Assembly: GCA_965242965.1 (NCBI GenBank)
Contig: OZ251518.1
Coordinates: forward strand, 768,001 to 832,000
DNA length: 64,000 bases
Source: Candidatus Poribacteria bacterium
Lineage (GTDB): Bacteria > Poribacteria > WGA-4E > WGA-3G
Direction: 5' to 3'
In this document: positions 8,501 through 25,569 of the stretch, piece by piece
Numbering within the stretch: the stretch's first letter is position 1
Layout of the letters: each line of letters starts with the position of its first letter
The notes under the pieces: model-generated
The model's input: the letters and a program-made list of their open reading frames with translations, nothing else
What the model was told of the DNA's origin: nothing
Database searches by the model: none
Translations under genes and position numbers: made by a program

Positions 8501-8743
8501 GATTCCCTCACTTTGGACGGCATTCCGCCAGAGGTTTTTGAGTATCGGTTGGGTAAACGTTCGGCATTAGAGTGGGTGCTGGATCAGTATCGGGTCAAGA
8601 CAGACGATCGAAGTCAAATCACCAACTCCCCGAACGATGCTGAGTCCCCGCAGGGAATTGTAGATCTCATCGGTTCGGTAATTACGGTAAGTTTGAAGAC
8701 GGTGGAGATTGTGTCGGGGTTGCCGCCCTTCCCGTTCCCGTAG
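5531..8743 (+). CDS. Single-polypeptide restriction-modification enzyme (N6-adenine MTase plus Type ISP-like specificity domain, no helicase)
   Basis: N-terminal D...EAK nuclease-like motif, YTPQPIVDF, motif I DAFVGTGNF, motif IV GNPPY, and C-terminal YRPF and SALEWVLDQY. Contains in-frame REP insertions. Confidence 0.85.
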   Translation: MPTLNIKPTHKAITAYYAALDRYRQHGISHETAVRAAFQALLEVGARQLNWTLVCEYTLNIGRRDLPVSMQSRGTGPRATVRPGTIRLDGALLDAYSLPRGTWEAKGVHGNLRAEIEKKFDAGYPQDNILFQTPERAILYQNGREVMDADITEPAPLVAVLKAFFGYERAHAAEWEAAVTAFRALVPELKREAKALIQTRHRESARFRNAFADFHQLCQNAIHPALAESAVEEMLLQHLLTERTFRTVFDNPDFAQRNIIAREIEKVINALIENAYSRDAFLENLKPFYREIEREAATLVDFSQKQHFLNTVYEQFFQGDSADVADTHGIVYTPQPIVDFMVQSVNHLLKTEFDRSLSDEGVHIIDAFVGTGNFIVRLMREIEPLKLNAKYRSELWCNEVLLLPYYIASLNIEHEFYEATGEYLPFEGISLVDTFDLAEDRQLSLLTQENTARVEKQKASPMFVVIGNPPYNVGQANEHDQNQNRKYAALDKLIQETYAKDSLATNKKSLYDLYVKALKWASERIGEEGIVALVTNNSFLDAKAFDGMRKHLAQDFDRLYIVDLGGNARKDTLVSDASVFGIQVGVSINFFVKGPSSTVARGPVPRDRSAEEPSSTVARGPVPRDRSIDDNAHIFYFRTDDTWNKNQKFDFLAQTEHIGNVPWQTLQPDARHTWLTEGLNTEFLTFIPMGTKTARRAKGDVENVIFQLYSNGVNTTRDAWTCNFNRNTLAENMQVMYDFYNSQLREWNGTEDKSGLTVDDFVTYADTKIKWTMDLRAKLRRGRVAEYDDSKIRHSLYRPFTKTHLYFDRHFNDRVYRFPFIFPTRETEAENRVICVSQSNRQDFAVLASKFIPNSALYIEPLQAFPFYAYDEDGTNRRENITDWALRNFRAHYGDDTITKWEIFHYTYGLLHHPDYRERYAADLKRDLPHIPFVKDFWAFADAGAQLAELHVNYESQPQYELTSITKERALDLRVERMKLSKDKTSLIYNDSLTLDGIPPEVFEYRLGKRSALEWVLDQYRVKTDDRSQITNSPNDAESPQGIVDLIGSVITVSLKTVEIVSGLPPFPFP

Positions 8744-9112: not shown

Positions 9113-11014
9113 ATGCGAACCCCTGCCTCCGCCGAAAACATCACATGGCGCGCCATCCTCATCGGACTCCTGACGCTCCCACTCAATATCTACCTCGTCG
9201 TTCAGACAGAGACGGTGTGGACAACGCAGTATCCGACGACGATGGCGATTTTCTTTAACGCCGTCTTCACGCTATTTCTCGTCGCAATGCTCAACCTCCT
9301 ATTCACGCGTTACCTTCCGAAATGGCAGCTAACGCAGGCGGAGATGCTCACCGTTTACCTGATGGGGACACTGGCATGCGTCGTTTGTGGACATGACCTT
9401 TTGCAAGCAACGATGTGCGTTTTGGGACACGCAACGTGGTTCGCCACACCCGAAAACGAATGGCAATCCCTCTTCTTCCGATACATTCCCGATTGGATTG
9501 CGGTACTGGATAGGCGCGCCTTGACCGGTTATTATGAAGGCACCTCAACGCTGTTTGAGATTGAGCATGTCCGCGCGTGGTTGACACCCGTGTTATGCTG
9601 GACACTTTTCTTTTCCGCGCTTGCATTCTCGATGCTGATGCTCAACGTCATTCTGCGCAAGCAGTGGATCGAACATGAAAAACTGAGTTATCCTATCATC
9701 CTGCTCCCTTATGAGATGACGAAAAGCCCCAGTTTTTACCAGAATCGGCTCCTCTGGCTCGGCTTCGCCATCGGGTGCGGACTTGATTTACTCAACGGCA
9801 TCAGTTTCCTTTACCCTTACGTGCCGAGCATTCCTATTCGCCACGACATCGGGAGGCTCTTCACGGAGAAACCGCTGAGTGCGATAGGTTCAACGCCTAT
9901 CCATCTTAACCCTTACGCGATCGGTATCGGGTTTTTGATGCCCTTGGATCTTTCGCTTTCTTGTTGGCTGTTCTATCTTTTTTGGAAGGCGCAGCTTGTC
10001 TTCGGCGCGATGTCCGGGATGAATCAAACCCCCGGCTATCCGCATATTGACATGCAGTCGCTCGGCGCGTATTTCGGGCTCTGTTTCTTCGCGCTTTGGA
10101 TAACGCACAAGCATTTGTGGCAGGTCTTCCGTAATATTCTGGGCATTAAAAGCCGTGTAGATCCTTCAAATGAACCGATGGGGTATCGCGCCGCGTTCAT
10201 CGGGTTTCTCGTCAGCATCGCAATTGTGTTTGGATTTTGCTTGCGCGCGGGGATGTCGTGGTGGGGTGTGCTTGGATTTTTCAGCGTCCACTTTATCCTC
10301 GTGTTAGCGTTCACGCGGATGCGCGCCGAGCTCGGGACACCTACGCAGGATTTCTATCGGGCGGGTCCCGGGTTTTTCCTCACCTCACTTGTTGGTTCAA
10401 GAAAGATTGGCGCGCCGACGCTCACCGGCTTCGCTTTCCTCTACGGCTTCACGCGCAACTACCGTTCGCAACCGATGCCGAATCAATTGGAAGGGTTTAA
10501 ATTGGCGGACCGGGGTGGCATCAACGCGCGTCAACTTTTGTGGGTGATGTGGGGCGCGACGGTCATCGGGCTGCTCATCGGGTTCACGGCGTTCTTGCAT
10601 GCAGGCTACAAGCACGGCAGTTTAGGCACGTGGCGCGGACAAGAAGCGTTCAGCGATTTACAGCGATGGCTCACCTTCCCAAGCGATACGGATTGGCGGC
10701 ACCTCGGCTTCTTCGGCTTTGGAATATCGCTGACCTTAGGCACGCTTTTCATGCGGTTGCGGTTTATCTGGTGGCAACTGCATCCGCTTGCGTATCCCCT
10801 TGCAGGAAATTGGAACTTTGGTCGGCTTTGGTTTCCGGTGTTTCTTGCTTGGGCGATCAAATCTATTCTGATTCGGCACGGCGGTCTGGGTGCGTATCGC
10901 CGGGCGTTGCCGTTCTTCTTGGGCACCATGCTCGGCGAATTTGTGATGGGCAGTCTCTGGGCGATCTTGGGGTTGTTTTTGGAGCAGCGGATGTATTCGT
11001 TCAAGCATTGGTGA
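9113..11014 (+). CDS. Polytopic membrane protein, DUF6785/DUF6784-like putative transporter
   Basis: Many TM helices; ATPENEW, LRKQWIEHEKLSYP, TRMRAELG, HPLAYP and PFFLG motifs. Paralog of 23626-25569. Confidence 0.8.
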   Translation: MRTPASAENITWRAILIGLLTLPLNIYLVVQTETVWTTQYPTTMAIFFNAVFTLFLVAMLNLLFTRYLPKWQLTQAEMLTVYLMGTLACVVCGHDLLQATMCVLGHATWFATPENEWQSLFFRYIPDWIAVLDRRALTGYYEGTSTLFEIEHVRAWLTPVLCWTLFFSALAFSMLMLNVILRKQWIEHEKLSYPIILLPYEMTKSPSFYQNRLLWLGFAIGCGLDLLNGISFLYPYVPSIPIRHDIGRLFTEKPLSAIGSTPIHLNPYAIGIGFLMPLDLSLSCWLFYLFWKAQLVFGAMSGMNQTPGYPHIDMQSLGAYFGLCFFALWITHKHLWQVFRNILGIKSRVDPSNEPMGYRAAFIGFLVSIAIVFGFCLRAGMSWWGVLGFFSVHFILVLAFTRMRAELGTPTQDFYRAGPGFFLTSLVGSRKIGAPTLTGFAFLYGFTRNYRSQPMPNQLEGFKLADRGGINARQLLWVMWGATVIGLLIGFTAFLHAGYKHGSLGTWRGQEAFSDLQRWLTFPSDTDWRHLGFFGFGISLTLGTLFMRLRFIWWQLHPLAYPLAGNWNFGRLWFPVFLAWAIKSILIRHGGLGAYRRALPFFLGTMLGEFVMGSLWAILGLFLEQRMYSFKHW

Positions 11015-11021
11015 CGTGCAG

Positions 11022-11250
11022 GATAGGAGCAGGATTATCACGATTTAGAGCAGGATTTACACGATTATCACGATTTAGAGCAGGATTATCACGATTATCA
11101 CGATTTCCAGGATTAGGTTTCTGAGGCACCGGCGTGGTTGTGGCCTGCCGCAGGCGGTTGGGTGCCGCGCCAAACGTAATCTTGCTAAATCTTGAAAAAT
11201 CGTGTAAATCCTGCTCCTATCTTGCTAAATCTTGTAAATCCTGCTCCTAC
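11022..11250. repeat. Inverted array of CAGGATT/CACGATT short tandem repeats
   Basis: Left arm gataggagcaggattatcacgattta..., right arm ...aaatcgtgtaaatcctgctcctatc (twice). Confidence 0.85.
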
Positions 11251-12809: not shown

Positions 12810-14011
12810 GTTAATTGACCAACGTTCCGGCGCACCTTGATTGCCGCCTTAATGATGTCCTCCATATCTTCTTCGCTACCCATTAAAACGTTTTGACTCA
12901 GGGAGAGCCCTGTCTGACACACTTTCTCCGTTTCCGGGCAATGCACTTCGGCATAGTCAACGTTTTGCCCGAAAAGGTCTGATGCCAAGAACGCCTCGCG
13001 ATACATCGGCGTGGTATACCAATAGCCCATCGGGATGCCCTCGGCGCGCATGGCTTTGAGGAACGTCTCACGTGAGATGCCTTCAAACTCCTCGGAGTCG
13101 AAAATCGCTTTGTAGCCGTGACACCCGCCGCGCGTCGCGCGAGGATCGAGAGGCGTTATTTTGATGCCCGGAATCTCGCCGAACCAGCCGTCTAGCCACC
13201 GCATGTTCATGTGCCGATAGTTCGTCTCTTCCTCAAGCCGTGTCAATCGGGAGAGCAGCAGCCCCGCCTGCCATTCTGTCATGCGGAAGTTGCCGCCGAA
13301 GGGTTCTATGTTACCGAACTCGGCATCGGGAGGCGTGCGGCCACAGTTGTGCAGTGCCCAGACGCGTTCATACGCCTCCCTGTCGTTCGTCAAAATGATG
13401 CCGCCTTCTCCAGCGCATAAGTTTTTAGAAGATTGGAAACTGAAGCATCCGAAATCTCCCCAACTTCCGACACCGCGCCCGCGCCACTCGGCACCGTGCG
13501 CCTGCGCGCAATCCTCAATTATTTTCAGATTGTGACGGCGCGCGACCGCGATAAGCGCGTCCATATCCGCCGGATAGCCCGCGATGTGGACAGGCAAGAT
13601 GGCCTTCGTCTTGTCCGTTATCGCCGCCGCCACTTTGGTAACATCTAACAGGAAAGTATCCGGCGCAGTGTCCACAAACACCGGCACGGCGTGCGTCATC
13701 AGAATGGCAACAACCGTGGCTTGGAAGGTGTAGGCGGTGGTGATGACTTCGTCGCCGGGACACACACCGGCGGCTTTCAAGGCGATGTAAAGTGCGGATG
13801 TGCCGCTATTGACGCAAACGCCGTTCTGCGCGCCCTGAAATTCAGCGAATTGCCTCGCAAATTCCGGTACCATTGGGCCGCCAATACCCCACTGGCCGCT
13901 CTCATAAATGCGCGTGAATGCTTCCATATCGGCTGCATCAAGCGTGGGCCAGGGGGGAAAGGGTTTGGTGCGGACAGGTTCGCCGCCGTTTATTGCTAGT
14001 TTGGTTGCCAT
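12794..14011 (-). CDS. DegT/DnrJ/EryC1/StrS family PLP-dependent aminotransferase
   Basis: NSGTSAL, IIEDCAQAHGA, FSFQSSKN (PLP lysine), GEGG and NFRMTE motifs. Confidence 0.95.
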   Translation of the reverse strand: MATKLAINGGEPVRTKPFPPWPTLDAADMEAFTRIYESGQWGIGGPMVPEFARQFAEFQGAQNGVCVNSGTSALYIALKAAGVCPGDEVITTAYTFQATVVAILMTHAVPVFVDTAPDTFLLDVTKVAAAITDKTKAILPVHIAGYPADMDALIAVARRHNLKIIEDCAQAHGAEWRGRGVGSWGDFGCFSFQSSKNLCAGEGGIILTNDREAYERVWALHNCGRTPPDAEFGNIEPFGGNFRMTEWQAGLLLSRLTRLEEETNYRHMNMRWLDGWFGEIPGIKITPLDPRATRGGCHGYKAIFDSEEFEGISRETFLKAMRAEGIPMGYWYTTPMYREAFLASDLFGQNVDYAEVHCPETEKVCQTGLSLSQNVLMGSEEDMEDIIKAAIKVRRNVGQLTEGVS

Positions 14012-14037
14012 TTTGAGGTATTCCTTAAATTGTTGCC

Positions 14038-14445
14038 TGGCGAGGGACAGGTTTCCTGCGCCCTACGGTGAAACCGCCATGTTACCGTAGCGCGGGGGCC
14101 TGTCCCCCGCGAGTTTTCAGTAGACCGAAGCATGGCGAGGGACAGGCCCTCGCCCTACGGTATATCGGGCCTGTCCCCCGCGATTGACGAGAAAACCGCC
14201 ATGTTACCGTAGCGCGGGGGCCTGTCCCCCGCGATCTTTCAGTGGACCGAAGCCTGGCGAGGGACAGGCCCTCGCCCTACGGTATATCGGGCCTGTCCCC
14301 CGCGCGTGACAAGAAAACCGCCGCGTTACCGTAGCGCGGGGGCCTGTCCCCCGCGATCGTTGGCCTGGCGAGGGACAGGCCCTCGCCCTACGGTATATCG
14401 GATGCCCTTCGGCATGGCGAGGGACAGGCCCTCGCCCTACGGTAT
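14038..14445. repeat. GTAG-REP tandem cluster
   Basis: Repeated accgccatgttaccgtagcgcgggggcctgtcccccgcga / ggcgagggacaggccctcgccctacggtat units. Confidence 0.9.
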
Positions 14446-14486
14446 GTCGGGGGCATTCTCGACATGCCAGACGATGCCCGCGCAAA

Positions 14487-17400
14487 TTACTCATTCCGGA
14501 TGGTAAGAAGACTCGTTTCCTGTTCGGCAGAGAGACGCACGCCTCGGATCATATTCAACGAGACACCTGCGAACCGCTTCAACATCCGTTCCTGCTGCAT
14601 GTTCGCCAACTCTGTCAGACTCCCATCCGTCCGGAACAAGTGATACGGTTCAAGCACCGCTATCACCTCGGCAGTTTTCTCAGCGGCGATCGGATCGTTC
14701 GCGCAATCGCGTCTATCGCAAATTTCGCCGAGGGCGTAAATGCCGTTCCGTTTGACATCCTTATGCACATCGCCGCGCAGCTGATCTATGAGGATGTGGA
14801 TAACCGGGTCGAGTTGCGTGATAGGTAACGGCTGTTCATGCTCCCGACTCCCCATCTTCCCGAACGCCCAGTTGATGGCAATCCGGTCTGCCGCTACGCC
14901 ATACTCGATCAGTTGCTTCAAGTGCTCAAGCGCGTTCACGCTGTGGCAGCACTTGCCGATGGAATAAACGGCGTTCGGACGGACGGCTACGGGGGTATCC
15001 CGCGTAATCAGGTTAATCAGGTGCGATTCGGCGATGGGGAGCCCCGTTTTCCCGATTGCTTCCACCGCATACCGGACCACCGTTTTGATAACCTGCGGGT
15101 GCTTGTGCCCGAGTTCATCCGGGTTGCTCAGCGCAATACCGGCATCGCAAATGTCATAAAGGAGATCCGTGTCCGACGTTTTGGATGCCAAGTCACCGAG
15201 AAGCACCATCACCCGCGCCTTCCCGTAGTTGTTCACATAGGGGATATTTTCGAGGAGCGGACCGATGAACTCCTCGGCGTTCGTGGCGTGGGCGATTTTT
15301 TGACGCTGCCGGATAACCTGATCCATAATCGTCTTCTTGCGGTTCATCTGATACGTGCGCATGTAATGGGAGAAGTTTTTCTTCATCTCCGCGATTTCAT
15401 ACTGCACATCAAGCGTGGCACCCTCGCTCGGGGCACCGGGCCGGAATGAAGACGCGCCTGCTCTCGGACGAGTGCTCACTACACTGGGAGAGCGCGGTGG
15501 GGACGTGGACAGAGACGGAGACCTGGGCGCGGACATGGAACCGCGCTCGGTAGGCGTGTAAGCAGGGGGCCTGAAACTCGGCTGCTGAACGTTGCTTGCT
15601 TCAACCGCCGGACGGCTTCTCTCCACAGGTTCTTGTTCTTGTTCTTCCCCGGCAGAGCGGGTTGAATCAACGCTGACCGCGAACCGCTCATTAGGATTCG
15701 CCCTGGGCCAGCCTTCAACATTCATGATGCCGCGTTCGTCCACCTGCACTTGGAGGTAGATAGGCTCATTTTTCAGGAGTGGCCGCCGAAACCGCACGTT
15801 CCGCTCAAGGATACGGCGATTCGGGGGTTTCGTATCGTGCCGGCTGCCGAGGTAAAACGGAAGCCGCAAGGAAGGTGCCCCATCGCTGACTTGCAAGCCT
15901 TCGATAGGCTGTGGTTCCGACAACGGCAGAATCGTCCCTGCTTCCACGAGAGGTTTGACTCTCCCCCCGGCGATTTCAATGCCGATAGTGTCGTTGAGGA
16001 TGCGTGCAGGCTTGATGCCCCTGTGCAAGTCATAGTGATACACAACGGCACCGCGCGCGACAGCTTTGTCCGCGTCACCTGCGGTAATAGGTGGGAAGCC
16101 GAAGAACGTCTCCAACCGTTTTTGGATGGGATGGAGTTTCGTCATCCCGCCGTTGAGGAGGACAGCATCTACCTGCGGCATCGTTCCGAGTTTCCGTTCC
16201 GCTTTTCTTAAGACATCGAGGATAGGATAGATGATGTTATCACAGGCGGGCAGCGAGTCCAGTTGCGCGACAGAATCCAGCGTGAGTTGATTCGCGAGGA
16301 GCGGTTCAACGATGTCTTCGTATTCAGACAGCGTCAAATCGTATTGAAACACCTGATTTTCAAACGGCGTTTGCATCACCATCGTCTCAACTGTTTCCGC
16401 ATCAAAGTGCCTCATTAACTTGCTCGTCTCAATCTCGCTGCTCAGATCGATTTTGGCTTGTTCAGCGTATTCGCGGAAGTTACTCTTGAGCAGGTTCATT
16501 TGGAACTCATCCAAGTTATTGGGGAGCCTGTTCTCGTAAGCCGCGAAGAAATGGTCGGCGAGTTTCTGGTCGAAGTCATCTCCACCAATTTGCGTATACC
16601 GTGAGACAGCCAGGTCTTCGATGTTCAGGCGGAATTCGCTGTGTTCATAAGAGACTCTGTGTAAAGAGACATCTAATGTGCCGCCGCCCAGGTCAAACAC
16701 GAGGATGAGTTTCGGTATGTGGAAATTGATGAGGGTTTCCGGAATTTCCCCTTTGTCCTGTCTATTGATGAAATCGTAGAGCGCGGCGCGCGGTTCATCA
16801 AGCAAAATGTTGCGTGGGGTTCCATCGTCTTCGTGCGTTCGGAATCCGGCGAGTCGCGCGGCTTCAACCGTAGCTGCCCGCATATCAGAGTCAAAGGAGG
16901 CAGGGACGGTGATGACAACATCTTGGGGCATGAAGCCGAACAACGTCTTGGCACTCGCGGCGAGATGTGTGAGAATCTGCGATGAGATATCCGCTGCGCT
17001 ATAAGTGTTATTATCAAACTCATACTGCTTCGGTGTGCCCATTTCGCTTTTAACAGATTTCACTACCCGGCTCGTCTGCCGTCCTATCATCGTCTTTGCG
17101 TATTCGCCGACAATCGGCGGGCTGCTTTCTTTGAAATAGACGCACGAGGGTAACAACTCCTTTTTGCCCATGCCGCCCCGCTCAATCATCATGTTAATCT
17201 CCACGACTTTGGGCTCTAACTTGTTTGTCTGTGGATTGAGCGTTCCCCATCCCATGACAGAATTGGTTGTGCCTAAATCAATGCCGATGTAATAGTTCGG
17301 ATGCGCGGGTTCAGTCGGCGCGCTCGGCGCACTTGGTGCACTTGAGGCAATCGTTGGCACCGTAGCACGAGGCCCTGTTCCGCGCGAACCTTGCGGTAAA

Positions 17401-18155
17401 ATCGCCCTCGGCCCCGTCGGACGGTTAAAGGCAGGTGCCTGCATCTGTGACGTTTCTGACGTTGACGTATCCTGCGGTTGTGCAGTAGGAGGAGGTGCCT
17501 CGCGCGGTGTTACAGCCGCGTGTGGCTGAATTGTCTCTGGCGTGTCAGCAGGTGCCGCTTCAAGGTTCAAACTTGCCAGCACTTCGTGAAATTGCTCGTC
17601 GCTGATTTCCTGAACACTGCGTCTCCATGCCAATTTGATAGGGAATTCACCGGTATGCTCCCAGTTGACTTCAATAAATCGCGGACGCACGTGAGGATAG
17701 ATTACATCAGCAATAGGCAGTGATGTGCCGAGTCGCGTTATCGCCTGCGTCCAGTCGTAATAAGCGGTTTTGGTAACGGTGCCGATGCCGAGAATCTTGC
17801 TTAATCCGTGCCGTGCGATAACCTTGTCCCCTACCTGAATTTCGCGATGGAATTCCCAAACGATCTTCGCTGCCCGCGGTCCCCAGTCAAGTTGACATTC
17901 TTCGTTAAAATCGTCAAAGTGCGTCTGGAAATCTTCAAACGTCTCGTAGGTGTCTAAATGCCCTAACTGTTCACTCGGTGACACCTGTCCTCGGACTGCA
18001 GGCGGGATGCCTGCAGGCGAGATGACGGTGCCGTGTTGCGTATGGACTGCCCACCCTACGGCGATTGTTCCATGTTCTCTGTCGTGCTGCCAAGCATTCT
18101 GGAACAACTCGTCCGGTATCGTGGATTCCATAGGTGCGATAACCCAATACTTCAT
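14487..18155 (-). CDS. Multidomain Hsp70-family protein: N-terminal EVE/PUA-like domain, Hsp70 ATPase, C-terminal HEAT-like repeats
   Basis: GIDLGTTNS, ITVPASF, DEPRAA, FDLGGGTLDVS, GGDDFD, AEQAKIDLS and AVARGA. N-terminus YWVIAP...IAVGW...IQVGDKVIA...GIGTV...VNW. C-terminus VRYAVEAIGK / NAVYSIGK / GIYALGEI. Confidence 0.9.
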   Translation of the reverse strand: MKYWVIAPMESTIPDELFQNAWQHDREHGTIAVGWAVHTQHGTVISPAGIPPAVRGQVSPSEQLGHLDTYETFEDFQTHFDDFNEECQLDWGPRAAKIVWEFHREIQVGDKVIARHGLSKILGIGTVTKTAYYDWTQAITRLGTSLPIADVIYPHVRPRFIEVNWEHTGEFPIKLAWRRSVQEISDEQFHEVLASLNLEAAPADTPETIQPHAAVTPREAPPPTAQPQDTSTSETSQMQAPAFNRPTGPRAILPQGSRGTGPRATVPTIASSAPSAPSAPTEPAHPNYYIGIDLGTTNSVMGWGTLNPQTNKLEPKVVEINMMIERGGMGKKELLPSCVYFKESSPPIVGEYAKTMIGRQTSRVVKSVKSEMGTPKQYEFDNNTYSAADISSQILTHLAASAKTLFGFMPQDVVITVPASFDSDMRAATVEAARLAGFRTHEDDGTPRNILLDEPRAALYDFINRQDKGEIPETLINFHIPKLILVFDLGGGTLDVSLHRVSYEHSEFRLNIEDLAVSRYTQIGGDDFDQKLADHFFAAYENRLPNNLDEFQMNLLKSNFREYAEQAKIDLSSEIETSKLMRHFDAETVETMVMQTPFENQVFQYDLTLSEYEDIVEPLLANQLTLDSVAQLDSLPACDNIIYPILDVLRKAERKLGTMPQVDAVLLNGGMTKLHPIQKRLETFFGFPPITAGDADKAVARGAVVYHYDLHRGIKPARILNDTIGIEIAGGRVKPLVEAGTILPLSEPQPIEGLQVSDGAPSLRLPFYLGSRHDTKPPNRRILERNVRFRRPLLKNEPIYLQVQVDERGIMNVEGWPRANPNERFAVSVDSTRSAGEEQEQEPVERSRPAVEASNVQQPSFRPPAYTPTERGSMSAPRSPSLSTSPPRSPSVVSTRPRAGASSFRPGAPSEGATLDVQYEIAEMKKNFSHYMRTYQMNRKKTIMDQVIRQRQKIAHATNAEEFIGPLLENIPYVNNYGKARVMVLLGDLASKTSDTDLLYDICDAGIALSNPDELGHKHPQVIKTVVRYAVEAIGKTGLPIAESHLINLITRDTPVAVRPNAVYSIGKCCHSVNALEHLKQLIEYGVAADRIAINWAFGKMGSREHEQPLPITQLDPVIHILIDQLRGDVHKDVKRNGIYALGEICDRRDCANDPIAAEKTAEVIAVLEPYHLFRTDGSLTELANMQQERMLKRFAGVSLNMIRGVRLSAEQETSLLTIRNE

Positions 18156-19408
18156 GAGAGAACCTCCTGAACTTTTGGTTTGTTAATAACGATAGGCTCA
18201 CTCTCATCGTCGAGGAGCGCGCCTTCGTAAATCCAACCGGCGGAGATTACCTCCACCGTCTTCGTTTCCCCCGGGTCTTCCCAGTCCGAACCGATGTAGT
18301 CGTATGCATCGGATTCGCTGAGGGTTATCTCTATTTTGGACCCGACGGCCGCTTGCGGGCGAACGCCTTGCGTCTTGAGGAAACGGGTAAACATGCGAAT
18401 GGTAATGGGAATGAGTTCAAGTTCCTGCGGAACCTCTATCTCGCTTTTCCTTAAACCCTTGGCGAGTTCCTCCGCCTTGAGAAACTGGTCTAACAGGTTG
18501 CTGTGCTTCCCTGAGTTCATCTCGTGGAAGAAGGCGACGGTTGCCTCGTGTTTCGCTTCCTCACGGACGCGCACCAGTTCTTCGTTGACAGCTTCGAGCT
18601 GCTGCAGCGCGCTTTCCGCGGAGGCGCGCAAGTCGGCGTTTTCGAGGAGTGCTTCTTCAGCCGCTATCATATTTTCGTCTTCAATGAGGTCAAACGGGAT
18701 GTCGTCCTCAGGCGGAGAAGGCGAGGTACTTGGGGCGGCGCGTGATTCGGTGCGCGGCGCACTCTCACGCTGCGTCAAGGATTTGAGGAGCCCCTGTGCG
18801 TCGGTGTCGCCGAGGGCGCGCTCTTGTGCGGACTTTTTAGGCCGGAGTCCGCGCTCTATCGCGACGAGTTCGACGAGTTCATCCAAGAGTGTCTTAGACT
18901 GCTTAAAGTTCGCCAATCTCGCGGTATCGTGAAGGATGCCTTTATAGCCCACTGAGTCGGGGAGTTCGATATAAAAGGCATAGAGAATCGCCTTGGGTTC
19001 AATCGGCCGCGTATCCTGCGGTGAGAGGTGCGCGTATTCCTCTAACGGGTATGCGGCGAGGTAATTTTTCGCCTGCGCATACAATGCCCCGTAGTCGCTG
19101 TCGCCCGGGTCACCGGTTACGAATTCGGAGAGGCATTCGCCGATTTCGCCAATCTGTATCGCCCACGAAACGCGTTTCCTGGGCCCGAGATGATACTTGT
19201 CCAGTTCGTCTACGACGCGAAAAGGCAGGCGGCTCACACCCATGTCCTTTTTGAGTCGCGAGACGAGTTCGTTGGGACGGCTTTCGGGTGAATGTAATAC
19301 GGCGCGCGCCAAGTAGTAGGCGTTGAGTTGCCGCTCAACGAGGTATTTCTCTTGACTTCTACCCTTATGCCGATATTTCTTTATCAGCTCGCTGATTTTC
19401 AATTCCAC
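18152..19408 (-). CDS. Coiled-coil protein with GrpE-like C-terminal domain
   Basis: GTG start with AGAGGT SD. Long coiled coil followed by VEVISAGWIYEG...VINKPKV. ATGA overlap with the Hsp70 gene. Confidence 0.65.
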   Translation of the reverse strand: MELKISELIKKYRHKGRSQEKYLVERQLNAYYLARAVLHSPESRPNELVSRLKKDMGVSRLPFRVVDELDKYHLGPRKRVSWAIQIGEIGECLSEFVTGDPGDSDYGALYAQAKNYLAAYPLEEYAHLSPQDTRPIEPKAILYAFYIELPDSVGYKGILHDTARLANFKQSKTLLDELVELVAIERGLRPKKSAQERALGDTDAQGLLKSLTQRESAPRTESRAAPSTSPSPPEDDIPFDLIEDENMIAAEEALLENADLRASAESALQQLEAVNEELVRVREEAKHEATVAFFHEMNSGKHSNLLDQFLKAEELAKGLRKSEIEVPQELELIPITIRMFTRFLKTQGVRPQAAVGSKIEITLSESDAYDYIGSDWEDPGETKTVEVISAGWIYEGALLDDESEPIVINKPKVQEVLS

Positions 19409-19557
19409 GTAAGGTTACCTCTGTTATCTATCGGTAATATTTTAGAACGTTGGTAATTCTTTTAGACTGGACGCAGCACTAAACCCGTAAGCGCGGTTGC
19501 AAACCGAAGAATTGTGACATCTGCGTCAAGCCTATTTTCTTCATTCCGAAGCTTTCG

Positions 19558-20928
19558 CTAGAAATAGATAGGTGTGCCGTTGGTGGCTTGATACACCTCT
19601 ATATCCTTGCCGAACCTTCGGAAGGTTTCGCTATAAACGTTCACCAGAGTTCGCTGTTGCGGGTATCCGTGAACGAAAACGACTTTCTTGGGATAGACTT
19701 TCTCAATAAGCGAAAGTATCCCCTCGCTGTCCGTGTGCGCGGAGAGGCGGTATGTGTCGACATTAGCGTGGACAGGGACGCTTCTGTCATTAAGTCTGAA
19801 CCGTTCTCCTTTGCTCCGATATAACCGTTCTAGTCGCCGCCCGGGGCTTTCTTCGTCAAGGTAGCCGCTAAAGAAAATGGCATTCCTTGCATCGGGAAGC
19901 AATTTTTCGGCATAGCGTGCCGAGGCACTTTTATCAAGTAACATGCCGGAGCTGGCGATGAGAACACCGTTGAAGGTGTCAAGGTTGTCGATGAGTCCCC
20001 GCGGTGCTTTACCTACCTGATACCCGAAAACCCGCACGCCGTTATTTTGATAAATCTCACAAGCGTTTTGAGCGAGTCCATCAATGTAAATGGTAAACGG
20101 TGCCAATCGCCCAGTGTGTATGAGATGCTGCAAGATGAGGGCGAGCTCTTGGCTTCTGCCTATCGCAAACGCGGGGATAAGCACACTGCCCCTGTTATTA
20201 AGGCATCGCTCGATTTTCCGCGCGAAAATTTCGCGTTCTTCAACGACTTTTCCGGCGTAAGCACCCTCCTGATACCCGTATGTTGATTCAGCAATGAGTA
20301 AGTCAACTTCCAAATTGTCTGGAATCTGATACTTGGGCACAGTCATCTGGTCAAACGGTGTAAAGTCGCCGCTGAACAGAATATTGCCGGCATCGGACTG
20401 CACGTAAATCATGCTTGCGCCGAGGATGTGCCCTGCCGGATAGAACGTGACTTGCACAGGGGGGTATAACGCGCTTCCCTGATGTTCTAGCAGAAAAGGG
20501 TTATTCCATTCAACGCATTGGATGTTTTCTAGTGCGTGTTCGACCCGAGTTGCGTTGAATTGCTGCACCTCTCGAAAATCCTGCAAAGTTGCATCAGGCG
20601 GCGCGTCGCCCCCGGCTTGGCTCAGTTGCATCTCCATGATATCGTGCGTCGCCTGCGTCGCGTAAATCGGAACATCCGGTGCCTCGGCGACGACAGTAGG
20701 AAGTGAACCAACGTGGTCCAAGTGTCCGTGAGAGAGTAGGATGCTTTCCAGCTCCCACAAGCCGTCAAGTAGGTTTTGGGCATAAAGCGAATCGAAGCGA
20801 GGAAACGTAGAATCAGCATGCAAGCGAATGCCGGAATCCAAGAGCAGTTTCGTGTCGTTTAACCGAATAAAATAGCAGCTTGCACCGATTTCATTTCCGC
20901 CTCCGATTGGGTAAAAGAGGTTCTTCGT
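19558..20928 (-). CDS. MBL-fold beta-CASP nuclease (CPSF/RNase J superfamily), probable ACG start
   Basis: GGGNEIGASCY, LLDSG, SHGHLDH, AGHILGA, SGD, ESTYG, PAFAIGRSQE, SSGML, SAH and VHG motifs. The frame extends 29 codons upstream of the called TTG to an ACG 7 nt after GGAGG. Confidence 0.9.
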   Translation of the reverse strand, partial: TKNLFYPIGGGNEIGASCYFIRLNDTKLLLDSGIRLHADSTFPRFDSLYAQNLLDGLWELESILLSHGHLDHVGSLPTVVAEAPDVPIYATQATHDIMEMQLSQAGGDAPPDATLQDFREVQQFNATRVEHALENIQCVEWNNPFLLEHQGSALYPPVQVTFYPAGHILGASMIYVQSDAGNILFSGDFTPFDQMTVPKYQIPDNLEVDLLIAESTYGYQEGAYAGKVVEEREIFARKIERCLNNRGSVLIPAFAIGRSQELALILQHLIHTGRLAPFTIYIDGLAQNACEIYQNNGVRVFGYQVGKAPRGLIDNLDTFNGVLIASSGMLLDKSASARYAEKLLPDARNAIFFSGYLDEESPGRRLERLYRSKGERFRLNDRSVPVHANVDTYRLSAHTDSEGILSLIEKVYPKKVVFVHGYPQQRTLVNVYSETFRRFGKDIEVYQATNGTPIYF

Positions 20929-21037
20929 CGTTCTGCCTCCGCGCTAAAGTTGTTTCCTAAATAGTGAGACAACGGGGTGTTCTGTTTCGTTGTATCTATT
21001 ATACGATTAATTGCAAATAAATAGCAACATGTTATTT

Positions 21038-21257
21038 AAGGATGTTTCATAACTCGTTGGCGCGCCCTCCTGGGGCGCGGCAGAAAGCCCGTTTCATCGT
21101 AGGGCGAGGGCCTGTCCCTCGCCATTGTCCGCGCAATCTGACGCTCGCGGGGGACAGGCCCCCGCGCTACGAAAAAAAACGGCACTTCACCGTAGGGCGA
21201 GGGCCTGTCCCTCGCCATCGTCATCCTACCGAACACTTTGAAATATAAAACACCCTC
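21038..21257. mobile_element. MITE-like REP mosaic
   Basis: aaggatgtttcataa ... tataaaacaccctc ends enclosing three REP hairpins. Confidence 0.7.
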
Positions 21258-21759
21258 ATCTTATTTTCCACTGTTCTCCACTAACTATTTTCGGTGGAAA
21301 TTCTCCCGATTCCACTTGCGCGATGAGAGCGTTAAGTGCCTCGCGCGCTTTTCGGGCCAAATCGGTGTCAATCGCCCCGGCCTGAATTGCCGCTTCAAAC
21401 TCGTCCTCATCCTGAATCTCATAACTGCCATCCGGATATACCCAAAGATCCAAGAACAAATCGGTTATTTCAAAACGGCTTGCTGTCCGTATCACCGGCA
21501 CAATAATATCACAATAATAGCCTGTCCACTCGTTATTAAGGTTGTAGATTTTCCCGATGTCATACCACTGCCCCCTAAATACGAACCAGACGGCGGTGAA
21601 GTTTTCTCCCAACACCGTTTCACCGTTATGCACAATCGGCGATGATGGGTTCACTCGCTGCGATGTGATGATGACGTTTTCGTCTTCATAGAGCAATCGC
21701 TGCTGAAAGTGCGAAACCCGTTCTGGCAGTCTTTTATATGTGAGTGTTACCGTTTCCAT
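21256..21759 (-). CDS. DUF402 (FomD-like) domain protein
   Basis: WYDIGKIY, GYYCDI and DLFLDLWVYPDG..IQDEDEF motifs. Confidence 0.85.
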   Translation of the reverse strand: METVTLTYKRLPERVSHFQQRLLYEDENVIITSQRVNPSSPIVHNGETVLGENFTAVWFVFRGQWYDIGKIYNLNNEWTGYYCDIIVPVIRTASRFEITDLFLDLWVYPDGSYEIQDEDEFEAAIQAGAIDTDLARKAREALNALIAQVESGEFPPKIVSGEQWKIR

Positions 21760-23576: not shown

Positions 23577-23625
23577 AATTTTACGTGAACTTATTCTCTT
23601 CTTTTTTTCTTCTTTGACGAGGCTT

Positions 23626-25569
23626 ATGCAAAACAACACTGAGCTCCACGCGCAACATCCACAATCTCAAAAGCGTCACCCCGGTGTCACCTTTCGCGCC
23701 ATTCTCCTCGGGGTGCTCCTGATACCGCCGAACACCTATTTTATCATGGCAAACCATCTCCGTTATTGGAGCACTTTGCCGACTACCATGTCGCTGATTT
23801 ACAATGTGGTAGTGACGTTAACGGTGTTGACATGCCTCAATTTCCTGCTCAGATGGTTGCTGCCGCGGTTTGCCCTCCGGCAGGGCGAATTGCTCACTAT
23901 CTATGTTATTTTGTCCCTTTCGTCGGCGATTGCGGGGCACGACATGATGCAGACTGTCGTGCCCGTTATTCCGAACGGCTTCTGGTTCGCTACGCCTGAA
24001 AACGAATGGCAGCAACTCTTCTGGCGATACCTCCCCAATTGGATGACGCTCAGCGAGCTCTCCGTCTTGCAAGACTTTTACGATGGCGATACCACCTTTT
24101 ACACGAAAAGGTATCTGTCGGCGTGGTGGGAACCGATTTTATGGTGGACTATTTTTCTCTCAGTGCTGATGTGGGTGATGGTTTGCATCGATTTGCTCCT
24201 GCGCAAACAGTGGATTGAACGGGAACGGTTGACATACCCTATTGTCCGCCTGCCGATAGAGATGACGCACTCGGATGGGCGGCTCTTCAAAAACAAAATG
24301 TTGTGGATAGGGTTCGCGATTGCCGGCAGCATCGATTTGATTAACGGCATCCACGCCTTCTTTCCCGCGTTTCCCGAAATCCCGGTGCGCAAGGCAGACT
24401 TGGGTATCTATTTCACCGAAAAACCGTGGGATGCGATGGGGTGGACACCTGTCTATATCCTCTCATTCGGCGTGGGATTGGCATTCTTGATGCCGCTGGA
24501 GATGTCGTTTTCGTTGTGGTTTTTTTATCTCTTCTGGAAAGGCGAGCGTATCCTCGGTAGAGCGATGGGCTTACAAGTTTTGCCGGGGTTTCCTTACGAT
24601 GGGCCACAGGGAGTCGGCGCGTATCTCGCCATCGCCTGTTTTGGGCTTTATGGGGGCAGGAAGCATTTCTATGCCATGTTCAAAAGCCTCATCGGCAAAA
24701 AACAGCAAAATCTCTCGCCGGAGATGCAAGATACAACCGACTACCGGTGGCCGGTGGCAGGGTTAATCGGCGGCGTGCTTTTCCTCTTCATTTTCTCGCA
24801 TCAGGGCGGCATGGCAGTTTGGATGATAGCCCTCTATTTCGGCATCTATTATCTGCTTGCGCTCGGCATCACGCGCGTGCGCGCCGAAGTCGGCCCGCCA
24901 ACACATGAGATGTTTGTTGCGAACCCGCGGCAATTCATCATCGACTCGCTCGGCTCGCGTCCGATTCCGCCGCCGAGTTTGACGATGATGTCGCTCTATT
25001 TTGCGTTCAATCGCGGGTATCGCGCGCATCCGATGCCCCATACTTTAGAAGGCTTCAAACTGGTTGAGGTCGCGAATATGCGCGCCGGACGCATGGTAAT
25101 AGCGATGATGTGCGCCATCTTTTTCGGTATCCTCGCCTCGTTTTGGGCGTATCTCGTTGTCTCCTATAACATCGGCGCGAATCCGGGATTAGGCAGCGGC
25201 GGCTACAACATGCTCCGTTCGTGGCTCTATTATCCTACCGAGACAAATATCCCTGCCGTTACTTTCATGGGTGTCGGCTTTCTGTTTACCGGATTGCTTT
25301 GGTGGCTGCGCACCCGTTTCCCGATGTTCCCGTTTCATCCCACCGGCTATGCCGTTGCGAGTAGTATATGGACGTTCGGCTGGCTTTGGTTCTCTGTGCT
25401 TATCAGTTGGGCGATTAAGAACATCATTTTACGCTTTGGCGGCATCCGCTTGTATCATCGGGTGTTACCCCTTTTCTTGGGGTTGATTCTAGGACAATTT
25501 ATTGTCGGCGGCGGCTGGGTGCTGATTCGGTTAATTTGGGGTGTCTCGGTTTATTCGTTTTATCGATGA
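23626..25569 (+). CDS. Polytopic membrane protein, DUF6785/DUF6784-like
   Basis: ATPENEW, LRKQWIERERLTYP, TRVRAEVG and HPTGYA motifs. Paralog of 9113-11014. Confidence 0.8.
   Translation: MQNNTELHAQHPQSQKRHPGVTFRAILLGVLLIPPNTYFIMANHLRYWSTLPTTMSLIYNVVVTLTVLTCLNFLLRWLLPRFALRQGELLTIYVILSLSSAIAGHDMMQTVVPVIPNGFWFATPENEWQQLFWRYLPNWMTLSELSVLQDFYDGDTTFYTKRYLSAWWEPILWWTIFLSVLMWVMVCIDLLLRKQWIERERLTYPIVRLPIEMTHSDGRLFKNKMLWIGFAIAGSIDLINGIHAFFPAFPEIPVRKADLGIYFTEKPWDAMGWTPVYILSFGVGLAFLMPLEMSFSLWFFYLFWKGERILGRAMGLQVLPGFPYDGPQGVGAYLAIACFGLYGGRKHFYAMFKSLIGKKQQNLSPEMQDTTDYRWPVAGLIGGVLFLFIFSHQGGMAVWMIALYFGIYYLLALGITRVRAEVGPPTHEMFVANPRQFIIDSLGSRPIPPPSLTMMSLYFAFNRGYRAHPMPHTLEGFKLVEVANMRAGRMVIAMMCAIFFGILASFWAYLVVSYNIGANPGLGSGGYNMLRSWLYYPTETNIPAVTFMGVGFLFTGLLWWLRTRFPMFPFHPTGYAVASSIWTFGWLWFSVLISWAIKNIILRFGGIRLYHRVLPLFLGLILGQFIVGGGWVLIRLIWGVSVYSFYR

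Follow-up and report, generated by a model that had tools for sequence, protein, structure and literature searches.

Hsp70-like proteins in which a nucleotide-binding and a substrate-binding domain (NBD/SBD) are combined with HEAT-like repeats have been described as CnuD in the Type III CoCoNuTs, which are predicted RNA-targeting systems (Bell, Makarova, Wolf and Koonin, eLife 2024; PMC11090510). In the portions of that paper drawn on here the Walker A-like motifs of CnuD are described as degenerate, with little ATP hydrolysis predicted, and Hsp70 homologues are noted to associate with ribosomes and RNA. Its main text has no instance of 'GrpE', 'NYN', 'nucleotide exchange' or 'beta-CASP', and 'MBL' appears in it a single time, in the legend to a figure. 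HSP70 and GrpE are also found together in the GAP1-N2-type GTPase-centric conflict systems, according to the passages that deal with those systems (Kaur, Burroughs, Iyer and Aravind, eLife 2020; PMC7159879).

The locus considered here is one copy of an accessory operon that is conserved across several phyla, made up of a CPSF73-like beta-CASP ribonuclease, a GrpE-derived adaptor or exchange factor, and a lid-less Hsp70 with a HEAT-like domain. No model for this trio exists in PADLOC-DB 2.0.0 and searches of the literature turned up no account of it, which agrees with the preliminary description of this DNA, where it was not recognised as a named system. The nuclease and the middle protein of the window (the whole 64,000-nucleotide stretch that was analysed) match 0 PADLOC families, with the Hsp70 fusion giving short local matches only, to PDC-S02 in its N-domain (a weak 25.2 bits at residues 62-136) and to PDC-M61B (16.3 bits over ~85 residues), and the picture is alike for 15 diverse family members. 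The reading tentatively favoured is that of an RNase module under the control of a chaperone cycle, which probably serves as a conflict system. The program-made list of open reading frames (ORFs) places three co-oriented ORFs on the minus strand, in the order nuclease, middle protein and Hsp70 fusion. The features are:

19558..20946, minus strand: beta-CASP (CPSF73-like) metallo-nuclease gene, from the ORF list, Pfam and the N-terminus of relatives
18152..19408, minus strand: middle protein gene, 418 aa, its C-terminal half GrpE-like, from the ORF list
18839..19408, minus strand: N-terminal helical domain of the middle protein (~residues 1-190), from the structure model; proposed adaptor
18155..18700, minus strand: GrpE-like half of the middle protein, residues 237-418, built of a long helix, a pair of shorter ones and a beta domain
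14487..18155, minus strand: EVE-like/Hsp70/HEAT-like fusion gene, 1222 aa, from the ORF list
17571..18155, minus strand: EVE/PUA-like N-terminal domain of the fusion, residues 1-195, from the EVE profile; fold putative
15621..17303, minus strand: Hsp70 nucleotide-binding and beta substrate-binding domains, residues 285-845, from the HSP70 profile; without a helical lid
14490..15368, minus strand: C-terminal HEAT-like helical repeat domain, residues 930-1222, from HEAT_2
20998..21027, minus strand: promoter-like TTGCTA-18-TATAAT, ~50 nt upstream of the nuclease frame, 10/12 consensus positions
21076..21228, no strand: REP-like element cluster upstream of the nuclease gene, the same elements as in the next cluster (D1, D3)
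14018..14459, no strand: REP-like palindromic element cluster downstream of the Hsp70 gene, families D1-D5

The TGA of the middle gene and the ATG of the Hsp70 gene overlap as ATGA within CTCTCATGAAGTAT, with a GGAGG 8 nt upstream of this junction, and the coupling of the last two of three co-oriented genes, claimed from the outset, is therefore borne out by both the ORF list and the junction sequence. The promoter-like site is a consensus match only, as the scan that found it counted 7 such sites over the region, where shuffled sequence gave 4.4 +/- 1.8. The trio lies between genes for DUF402 and homocysteine S-methyltransferase on one side and a DegT aminotransferase on the other, and a Type ISP restriction-modification-like gene is found 5.7 kb away. 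The preliminary description had the unit bounded by metabolic genes and by repeat clusters; both are present, and inverted pairs (I2, I3, I24 and I25) join the upstream and downstream REP-like clusters, but the repeats were rejected as cassette ends as the palindromic element occurs genome-wide at ~2050 sites per strand (core GCGRGGGCCTGTCCCYCGC, 2052 forward and 2055 reverse sites; control 0).

The middle-protein family comprises 316 representative clusters, and the trio recurs across taxa (own phylum, Bacillota and metagenomes), a co-occurrence that the preliminary description had put forward for checking. In the own phylum the order nuclease-middle-Hsp70 is found in 8/8 of the other loci with enough contig to show it, and the middle protein and Hsp70 are together in 9/9 other loci, with the same three-gene order in 2/2 matched loci of Bacillota. 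The metagenome set is redundant, its 80 loci falling into 42 flank groups, and within it the nuclease is directly upstream of the middle gene in 52 of 54 evaluable loci, the Hsp70 follows it directly in 56 of 57 and the full trio is present in 44 of 46, the commonest spacing of middle gene to Hsp70 being the 4-nt overlap (19 loci). Cyanobacteria have a two-gene form with an NYN RNase domain fused to Hsp70 (8/8 loci by architecture, 5/5 of those scanned), the NYN domain lying at the position of the EVE-like domain. The EVE-like domain itself is present in the window and in 2/9 other loci of the phylum, the Hsp70 proteins of Bacillota and metagenomes being too short to hold it, and it is an optional add-on of the trio. 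As this reader is optional, and missing from most trio versions, the sensing of foreign nucleic acid that was first proposed cannot explain how the trio works in general. From lineage to lineage the effector and the N-terminal module are exchanged for others, and the parts of the trio also occur joined. P0252 (771 aa, a cluster of 9 members) has an MBL/RMMBL nuclease and then the whole middle protein in one chain, a 774-aa MBL cluster of the Atlas (54 members) matches the middle-protein model, and in P0169 (1295 aa) the N-domain of the middle protein is fused before EVE-Hsp70-HEAT. Such module swapping, taken with patchy presence, looks like accessory, conflict-like behaviour.

The nuclease has Pfam matches to Lactamase_B, Beta-Casp (49.1 bits) and RMMBL (34.2 bits, above cut-off). 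The MBL/beta-CASP metal motifs are retained as first stated, with D31, H67/H69/D71/H72, H167, D188, H398 and H420 invariant in an alignment of 36 sequences and E214 at least 90% conserved, and the protein has all that marks a CPSF73-like beta-CASP enzyme, MBL motifs 1-4, motifs A, B and C with His at C, and RMMBL. A His at motif C marks RNA enzymes. The best solved relatives of the nuclease profile are INTS11 (9e-78) and CPSF73 (2e-77), followed by Ysh1, aCPSF1/FttA, Cas14, TTHA0252 and RNase J, and the 43 solved relatives at E <= 1e-10 are all RNA enzymes or Cas14, with no DNA-repair beta-CASP enzyme among them. The nuclease is, going by its sequence, probably of the RNA-cleaving CPSF73/INTS11 kind, which makes RNA the likelier substrate and presumably what the enzyme cuts. 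It scores 166.5 bits with NCBIfam aCPSF1, below the cut-off of 580. Membership of Type VII CRISPR as a Cas14 was considered and rejected, the NCBIfam score being 152.8 bits against a cut-off of 800 (NF045584) and no CRISPR-associated matches being found among the three genes or the scanned neighbours.

The description of the middle protein as GrpE-like holds for residues 237-418 but not for residues 1-190, which form a separate helical domain of nine helices (block pLDDT mostly 76-93, in an AF2 model of mean pLDDT 74.5) that matches no Pfam family. In the VIA structure comparison every one of the top 6 rows is a GrpE chain (Z 7.8-8.9, rmsd 6.4-17.1), aligned over 138-168 residues and covering residues 237-418, with the next row at Z 5.8 over 48 residues; a Z near 8 is not decisive alone for helical models, and it is because all of the top 6 are GrpE, each spanning nearly the whole GrpE chain, that the fold is supported. 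The model has the long helix, the bundle segment and the C-terminal beta domain of GrpE, and the top Foldseek matches are also GrpE (prob 0.95, E 0.028). The sequence of the window protein has no match to Pfam GrpE (PF01025) at E <= 0.1 (cut-off 25.8 bits), its narrow profile has no similarity to GrpE by hhalign, and a profile search of the PDB with it matched no GrpE chain. Other members of the HMM-defined family do reach the Pfam model, the middle protein of locus L145 with 35.2 bits and P0258 with 31.0 bits, 4 further members score 19-25 bits, below the cut-off, and hhalign gives a link to GrpE through family members at E 1.3e-4 (prob 54%). The C-terminal half would thus, as modelled, be derived from GrpE.

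At the start of the Hsp70 fusion the PUA/EVE-like domain that had been suspected stands as a putative EVE-like domain. When isolated it reaches 24.5 bits with EVE (PF01878), where the cut-off is 23, at E 3.1e-5 and over positions 15-143 of the 145 in the profile, within the full-length protein it scores 19.8 bits, below that cut-off, and the match is seen in the N-domain of 8/15 family members. A PDB sequence search with this domain gave no meaningful match. EVE and PUA-like domains are readers of modified bases, and occur on McrB- and Mrr-type restriction proteins. HSP70 (PF00012) is matched by residues 290-845 with 155.1 bits against a cut-off of 20.6 (E 2.7e-45), the match running from profile position 2 and stopping at 512 of 599, so that the lid is absent. 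GIDLGTTNS, the K of KSVKSEMG, LDEPRAA, DLGGGTLD and NGGMTK align with the DnaK of the same genome, and the ATPase motif columns are invariant in 16 family members, so the claim of an intact ATPase core stands. The phosphate 1 and 2, catalytic K/E/D and adenosine motifs are all intact, their roles presumably being those given in the DnaK literature, and the Hsp70 is predicted to be active. In place of the lid are the HEAT-like repeats that had been noted; the window protein matches HEAT_2 weakly (E 1.7e-4), but the domain is found in 14/15 family members (best E 6.8e-6), 85 proteins share the domain at E <= 0.001, and the metagenome Hsp70 proteins align to the A2 profile out to positions 1047-1083. 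The trio Hsp70 thus lacks the C-terminal lid, and a J-domain partner was not identified either. There is no DnaJ Pfam match in the trio proteins, and the 4 J-domain matches of the genome all lie outside the window, in line with the earlier statement that the window holds no DnaJ.

The gene order, coupling, domain identities, catalytic motifs, GrpE-like fold, fusions and patchy distribution are all computed, and it is from these that we infer the binding steps and the trigger of a mechanism. The Hsp70 would be both sensor and switch, its substrate-binding domain capturing a client with the aid of the HEAT-like domain and, in versions that have one, of the EVE-like reader. The client may be a foreign or aberrant protein, a nascent chain or a marked nucleic acid, and would be locked on the Hsp70 by ATP hydrolysis, with a GrpE-like dimer then releasing ADP and resetting the cycle. 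The N-domain of the middle protein may tether the RNase to this cycle, such that the state of the chaperone licenses or restrains RNA cleavage. That the target is RNA is supported by the RNA-enzyme relatives, the RMMBL match and the use of NYN by cyanobacteria in place of a separate nuclease, and the most likely role of the trio would be as a conflict or defence system acting on RNA. In this genome the start codon of the nuclease reads as a stop, and little or none of the effector may be produced.

It is possible, though on the unlikely side, that the trio has no role in defence and is a stress or quality-control module, in which a specialised Hsp70 cycle recruits the CPSF73-like RNase to aberrant ribonucleoprotein. 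Example targets are stalled translation complexes and aggregated RNA-protein, with the cell surveying its own RNA and protein under particular conditions. The nearest solved relatives of the nuclease are RNA-processing enzymes and Hsp70 homologues associate with ribosomes and RNA, as the CoCoNuT paper mentions (PMC11090510), both of which fit this alternative. So do the flanking genes, which are mostly housekeeping in every phylum examined, with no recurrent defence partner among those inspected, and the enrichment near defence genes that the preliminary description would have looked for is not seen. No copy of the trio was found in IMG/VR viral contigs (alignment A7 as query) or PLSDB plasmids (P0302 as query). 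Descent in the own family also looks vertical. Flanks are 89-92% and the trio 76-91% identical when compared with genus g1, and for g3 the identities are 67-85% in the flanks, 66-69% in the nuclease and 73-79% in the Hsp70 core; the cassette has thus diverged in step with its flanks, which vertical descent and frequent loss would explain better than mobility. Against a quality-control role is the rarity of the unit, carried by 10/151 genomes of the own phylum, 9/401 cyanobacterial and 2/351 Bacillota genomes (0.6-7% of sampled genomes per phylum), and the clean empty sites of close relatives, DUF402 directly adjoining DegT in 12/12 genus-g3 genomes examined; two trio copies sit at other genomic sites. 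Vertical inheritance as a housekeeping locus had been named as grounds for giving up the defence reading; the low carriage and empty sites mean that the trio is not housekeeping. Exchange of the nuclease between beta-CASP and NYN and the addition of a modified-base reader are more typical of conflict systems, and an RNase module gated by a chaperone cycle is preferred.

A further alternative, unlikely, applies to this genome only and holds that the cassette has been disabled here or is in decay, irrespective of what it does in other genomes. The unit had been drawn to 20940, which is not a start, and the conserved N-terminus reaches codon 20944-20946, which is TAG here but a TTG start in relatives. 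The TTG form is read at 20945 in 4/4 runs from 3 studies, is present in the genus-mate L016 and begins P0365, which is 99% identical to the nuclease and opens with MRGGRTTKNLF. No ATG, GTG or TTG lies in frame between this TAG and the first canonical start, the TTG at 20841, from which the ORF (19558..20841, 427 aa) would be without the first 35 residues, including the conserved GGGNEIGASCYF strand. With the start lost the trio would no longer work as a unit here; in G113, the most diverged copy, the Hsp70 is split into two ORFs. Set against decay, the rest of the nuclease frame is open and keeps its near identity to P0365, and at the position of the ATG in genus-g3 and g5 homologues this frame has an ACG, with a GGAGG 7 nt ahead of it, so that weak non-canonical initiation is possible, as is a single-base assembly error.

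It is very improbable that the trio restricts or repairs DNA, its EVE-like domain reading modified bases and its beta-CASP enzyme cutting DNA as those of the Artemis/SNM1 type do, for whilst the isolated EVE match, the presence of such readers on restriction proteins, a sub-threshold NCBIfam match to a ligase-associated DNA-damage exonuclease (68 bits, cut-off 325) and the Type ISP-like gene 5.7 kb away fit this, the 43/43 RNA-enzyme or Cas14 relatives, the RMMBL above cut-off, the cyanobacterial NYN and the lack of the EVE-like domain in most versions do not.

The nuclease shares with CPSF73, INTS11, aCPSF1 (FttA) and Cas14 the same full-length MBL, beta-CASP and RMMBL architecture and the complete set of metal motifs (profile E-values between 9e-78 and 1e-56, with almost the entire length aligned), but has no KH domains and is partnered by the Hsp70/GrpE-like pair rather than by cleavage-factor, Integrator or CRISPR proteins. 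With the housekeeping DnaK-GrpE pair the trio has in common the Hsp70 ATPase, the beta substrate-binding domain and an adjoining partner of GrpE fold. The genome also encodes a canonical 638-aa DnaK, with its canonical GrpE and DnaJ elsewhere (C1:5245372-5246199), and a six-frame family search found 2 other GrpE genes but not the middle-protein gene. The trio Hsp70 is ~30% identical to the corresponding DnaK region, lacks the lid and adds the HEAT-like and EVE-like domains, whereas the GrpE-like protein differs from housekeeping GrpE in its extra 190-aa N-domain and in escaping the Pfam GrpE model.

The GAP1-N2-type systems, a predicted conflict system, share with the trio a dedicated HSP70 and GrpE exchange factor, but are, in the passages describing them, GTPase-based with a DnaJ- or TPR-fused FNIII protein (PMC7159879), where the trio is without GTPase or J-domain and has a beta-CASP or NYN nuclease. 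The CoCoNuTs are described as derived from McrBC, and their components include a McrB-like GTPase, a DUF2357 McrC N-domain, coiled coils and HEPN RNases (PMC11090510). No AAA_5/McrB or DUF2357 match is found in the trio or its neighbours, nor in the scanned Bacillota and cyanobacterial loci, and no coiled coils or HEPN RNases in or beside the trio. Membership of CoCoNuT Type III was accordingly rejected, there being no CnuB-type NxD GTPase and no CnuC-type DUF2357 protein. Likened to CnuD and CnuCD by their published description rather than by sequence, the trio has the same Hsp70-like NBD/SBD followed by HEAT-like repeats beside a nuclease, but differs from CnuD, as portrayed there, in having intact phosphate-binding motifs and a private GrpE-like factor (PMC11090510).

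The nuclease, the middle protein and the Hsp70 fusion are encoded head to tail in a tightly coupled operon, in which the stop of the second gene and the start of the third have an ATGA in common with a GGAGG 8 nt upstream, and the nuclease and middle-protein genes are spaced by 149 nt. On its upstream side the operon is bordered by genes for a DUF402 protein and a homocysteine S-methyltransferase, and on its downstream side by one for a DegT-type aminotransferase.

Features of the cassette and its surroundings
5531-8743, plus strand: Type ISP restriction-modification-like gene, 1070 aa, with Type ISP C-terminal specificity, ISP coupler, Eco57I and N6_Mtase domains
9113-11014, plus strand: large membrane protein (DUF6785 + DUF6784), paralogous to that at 23614-25569, the two bracketing the region
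11030-11119, intergenic, after the DUF6785 gene: short tandem array of 30-nt units, 3 copies
11189-11248, intergenic, after the DUF6785 gene: short tandem array of 30-nt units, 2 copies
14487..18155, minus strand: Hsp70 fusion, from the ORF listing
18152..19408, minus strand: middle protein, from the ORF listing
19558..20841, minus strand: beta-CASP nuclease, from the ORF listing
21027-20998, minus strand: promoter-like TTGCTA-18-TATAAT, the best match in the region, just 5' of the nuclease gene and a match to consensus only
23614-25569, plus strand: large membrane protein (DUF6785 + DUF6784)

The Type ISP-like gene lies 5.7 kb from the trio and its ORF is without an obvious helicase-nuclease part, and related genomes repeatedly have homologues of the DUF6785/DUF6784 proteins close to the cassette site. 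The lack of a DnaJ gene that had been noted for the window holds, with the four J-domain hits of the genome all found elsewhere. The flanking repeat clusters can be ruled out as ends of the cassette and are uninformative about it, since the palindromic element of both clusters occurs genome-wide, at ~2050 sites per strand in the 5.7-Mb genome (control 0). An Rfam scan of 13900-21400 found no family. A degenerate copy of this genome-wide REP-like palindrome (64% to the reference) is carried in frame within the Hsp70 gene at 17357-17398, the linker between the EVE-like and Hsp70 domains, where it reads ...SRGTGPRATV..., a peptide also given by the REP-like element in intergenic spurious ORFs; apparently a disordered linker has taken in a repeat of intergenic origin.

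The nuclease, which is of the RNase type, matches the Pfam families Lactamase_B, Beta-Casp and RMMBL, each above cut-off, and the residues D31, H67, H69, D71, H72, H167, D188, H398 and H420 are invariant in a 36-sequence alignment reaching into Bacillota. The solved structures matched by the profile of the nuclease alignment are only RNA-cleaving beta-CASP enzymes and Cas14, over nearly the full length, and include INTS11 (9e-78), CPSF73 (2e-77), Cas14 (1e-56) and TTHA0252 (1e-49), with further matches to Ysh1, archaeal aCPSF1/FttA and RNase J; the protein falls far under the NCBIfam cut-offs for aCPSF1 and Cas14. The first canonical start comes only after the conserved N-terminus of the nuclease (NLFYPIGGGNEIGASCYF), and the frame reaches back to 20944-20946, a codon that is TAG in the window and TTG in the genus-mate. 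As the genus-mate, the 99% identical homologue P0365 (which starts MRGGRTTKNLF) and the contigs of all four sequencing runs compared (4/4, from 3 studies) have the TTG form, the start codon of the nuclease has been lost in the window genome or in its assembly. None of the sequencing runs listed for the sequence was from RNA. Nuclease homologues from g3 and g5, two other genera of the phylum, have an ATG start two codons before NLFF, and at this position both genomes of g1, the genus of the window, carry an in-frame ACG 7 nt after a GGAGG (window 20926-20940; 7861-7878 in L016, the locus of the genus-mate), thus it is conceivable that this ACG acts as a weak non-canonical start.

The HSP70 profile matches residues 290-845 of the fusion protein (E 2.7e-45, profile positions 2-512 of 599), with the nucleotide-binding and beta substrate-binding domains present and the helical lid absent. 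Alignment to the genome's own DnaK matches up the phosphate-1, phosphate-2 and adenosine motifs as well as the catalytic K and E, all of them invariant in 16 family members, and this lid-less ATPase is apparently competent. HEAT_2 in the C-terminal 290 residues is weak in the window protein and is found in 14/15 members, with a best E of 6.8e-6. EVE narrowly exceeds its cut-off on the isolated N-terminal 200 residues (24.5 bits vs 23, E 3.1e-5) and is matched by 8/15 members; against PDB sequences this N-terminal domain found nothing meaningful, JBP3 appearing at E 1.6. The Pfam label PF28530.1 is found only on matches long enough for the N-terminal domain, namely P0087-P0092, P0096, P0144, P0165, P0166, P0168 and P0169, and is not on P0094 and P0095, which are likewise long; the domain may already have been defined in a recent Pfam release (PF28530). 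When genome contigs were searched with the full Hsp70 alignment, 80 ordinary DnaK loci of 26-32% identity were returned via the universal motifs GIDLGTTNS and FDLGGG, and served only as entry points into other phyla. Outside the window, at locus L003 of the same genome (G000:C1:327310-329165), a second GrpE (Pfam 47.9 bits) is directly followed by a short Hsp70-like gene, an open frame of 544 aa that is 36% identical to the Hsp70 of the trio over residues 332-540, and the two are likely to be another private Hsp70/GrpE pair.

The preliminary description had called the middle protein GrpE-like, and for residues 237-418 this is borne out by fold comparison and by Pfam GrpE matches in family members. 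The window protein has no family in Pfam, NCBIfam or PADLOC, and sequence evidence for GrpE arises only via the wider family. An AF2 model made from 26 homologues (mean pLDDT 74.5) is in three parts, a nine-helix N-domain (residues 1-190), a disordered linker, and a 59-residue helix followed by two shorter helices and a beta domain. The best Foldseek matches of the model are GrpE chains, with a probability of 0.95 but an E of only 0.028, and in the VIA re-alignment the top six rows are all GrpE (human GrpEL1, E. coli, Geobacillus and M. tuberculosis), with Z 7.8-8.9 and 138-168 residues aligned to model residues 237-418, the next row being a 48-residue helix at Z 5.8. With the narrow alignment A1, GrpE was not found among PDB sequences, where there was only a weak match to a hibernation factor (E 0.025), and hhalign against A3, the alignment of the phylum's own GrpE, gave a probability of 0.2%. 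The profile of the wider 38-sequence family alignment, A5, likewise found no GrpE among PDB sequences, only coiled-coil noise; compared with the phylum's own GrpE, it gives an in-register match to the beta domain at a modest E of 1.3e-4 (hhalign probability 54%). The Pfam GrpE model (cut-off 25.8 bits) gives 31.0 in P0258, 25.1 in P0252 and 24.3 in P0271, members found with the A1 profile at E <= 1e-20 in which it is covered nearly whole, and 35.2 in the cyanobacterial locus L145, and an Atlas search with a further homologue, P0013, pointed to GrpE-labelled clusters. On the fold rows, the family-member matches and the hhalign register together, the term GrpE-like is accepted for residues 237-418, which probably represent a divergent GrpE homologue with a predicted exchange activity. 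The middle protein is a GrpE-fold partner with an extra domain.

The only organism name attached by sources to close homologues is 'Candidatus Poribacteria', and in a six-frame search 10/151 genomes of this phylum have the middle protein, with 9/99 in the window's own family and 0/51 in the other eight families; by genus it is in 6/57 genomes of g3 and 1/38 of g2. The three genes also occur together elsewhere, with the Hsp70 gene adjoining the middle-protein gene in 9/9 other loci of the phylum and the nuclease present in all eight with sufficient contig (8/8). The EVE-like domain is in two of the nine other loci, with the Hsp70 proteins of g3 and g2 beginning at about residue 285. The cassette sits between DUF402 and DegT in 7/9 loci including the window and at other sites in 2/9, one of these two adjoining ParB-like, UvrD-like and RmuC genes, and DUF402 directly abuts DegT in 12/12 g3 genomes examined at the cassette site. 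As the divergence of the cassette follows that of its flanks, the simplest history would be an ancestral cassette that has been lost many times and rarely relocated. A seemingly decaying copy is that of genome G113, where the Hsp70 (L024 6597-9304) is split into two ORFs of 513 and 390 aa in different frames and each of the three genes has diverged further than in any other copy of the family. A different insert of ~5.9 kb occupies the neighbouring slot in G118, between homocysteine methyltransferase and DUF402 (L027 4363-9812), and carries genes for a 531-aa Hsp70 (E 2e-119), for two proteins that match no family and for an FGE-sulfatase-domain protein.

The family is far wider than its own phylum: a profile search of 1.84 billion representatives gave 316 middle proteins at E <= 0.001, of which 253 reach E <= 1e-10, and most are of 330-400 aa. 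Two fusions join parts of the trio in one chain: in P0252 (771 aa, a cluster of 9 members) an MBL/RMMBL nuclease precedes the entire middle protein, and in P0169 (1295 aa) the N-domain of the middle protein precedes EVE-Hsp70-HEAT. In the cyanobacteria, the phylum of a Thermosynechococcus record, 9/401 genomes match and the middle-protein gene is directly 5' of a ~1050-aa Hsp70-family gene in 8/8 loci fetched. These loci have no separate beta-CASP gene, and an NYN RNase domain opens the Hsp70-family protein in 5/5 scanned, above cut-off in four; its C-terminal domain is a possible homologue of the HEAT-like domain, at an hhalign probability of 19% (E 1.3e-3). Two of 351 Bacillota genomes match, and each of the two loci runs from MBL nuclease through middle protein to Hsp70. 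A metagenome scan with a distant subgroup returned 80 loci, which are redundant and form 42 flank groups, where the nuclease is directly upstream in 52/54 evaluable, the Hsp70 directly downstream in 56/57 and the full trio present in 44/46, and middle-protein and Hsp70 genes most often overlap by 4 nt. A Dethiosulfovibrio record, from the Synergistota, falls in the cluster of a distant Hsp70-HEAT relative. The nuclease modules are interchangeable (beta-CASP or NYN), as are the N-terminal modules (none, EVE-like or NYN).

The metagenome flanks (132 proteins, 24 distinct contexts) are mostly housekeeping, with RNA polymerase, tRNA synthetases, EF-G, transporters and biosynthesis, and a plain tally of them found no recurrent partner; the cyanobacterial loci and the single Bacillota locus having flanks are also in housekeeping surroundings. 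Scattered amongst the metagenome flanks are an orphan Cas6 (one lineage, 14 loci), a DUF3427-ResIII-PLD helicase, HNH, PIN, WYL, StiP/PELOTA and RmuC proteins, an integrase-like protein and NikA. The orphan Cas6 (PF10040, E 9e-18; L162 5814-6545 and 13 related loci, all of one gut-metagenome lineage) is directly upstream of the trio nuclease and beside a YhgA-like transposase, with no repeat array in the 17-kb L162 locus. Viral contigs searched with the query A7 gave 87 pattern matches, 0 confirmed, and plasmids searched with P0302 gave no match. A role in cellular RNA and protein quality control is suggested by these housekeeping flanks, by vertical descent and by absence from the mobile elements searched, and is a serious, if less likely, rival. 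The patchy distribution, repeated loss, module swapping and two published precedents favour a role in conflict or defence, which is the most likely single reading, tentatively held.

Mechanistically, the middle protein would dimerise, dock on the nucleotide-binding domain of Hsp70 as GrpE does and reset the cycle, with the nuclease held by its N-domain. Capture of a client by Hsp70 would then toggle RNA cleavage on or off, assisted by the HEAT-like domain and, where present, the EVE-like reader. In a more specific form of the conflict or defence role, possible but less likely than not, a complete private Hsp70 cycle would be the sensor and switch of an unrecognised cross-phylum family of RNA-targeting immunity. 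Here a CPSF73-like or NYN RNase would be licensed once the chaperone captures a client, for example a phage protein or nascent chain, and the cycle would be run by a lid-less Hsp70 carrying a HEAT-like domain together with a GrpE-derived exchange factor that doubles as nuclease adaptor. If true, nuclease immunity gated by a chaperone ATPase cycle would be seen here for the first time, as would the recruitment of a GrpE relative as an effector scaffold.

A ribonuclease tied to a dedicated Hsp70 and the exchange factor of that Hsp70 lies outside the textbook picture of Hsp70 systems as protein-folding machines. With three genes the unit is compact, its order and coupling are kept from sponge-associated bacteria to gut Bacillota, natural fusions point to which parts touch, and the Bacillota versions could be transferable to laboratory hosts. 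If it is an immune system, chaperone client capture would be a new sensing principle, with an experimental handle on the predicted Hsp70-HEAT proteins of CoCoNuT systems; as a quality-control device it would tie chaperone cycles directly to bacterial RNA decay. In both cases a family of at least 316 sequence clusters, labelled 'hypothetical protein' or unnamed in sources, gains a name and a testable hypothesis.

Amongst known systems, PADLOC-DB 2.0.0 has no model for any component of the trio beyond short local matches, and searches of the full-text literature within reach, which takes in few subscription journals, found no description of a unit of Hsp70, GrpE-like protein and beta-CASP or NYN nuclease. 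Membership of type VII CRISPR, of the GTPase-centric systems and of CoCoNuTs is rejected, as the defining partners are absent. CnuD of the CoCoNuTs (PMC11090510) is a precedent for a conflict role, and GTPase-centric systems with HSP70 and GrpE (PMC7159879) are a second. CnuD and the trio have the Hsp70-HEAT idea in common, although the trio is without the defining McrBC features of CoCoNuTs. As a class the trio falls among predicted conflict systems containing chaperone-type NTPases, with a genuine possibility of its being a new kind of immune switch.
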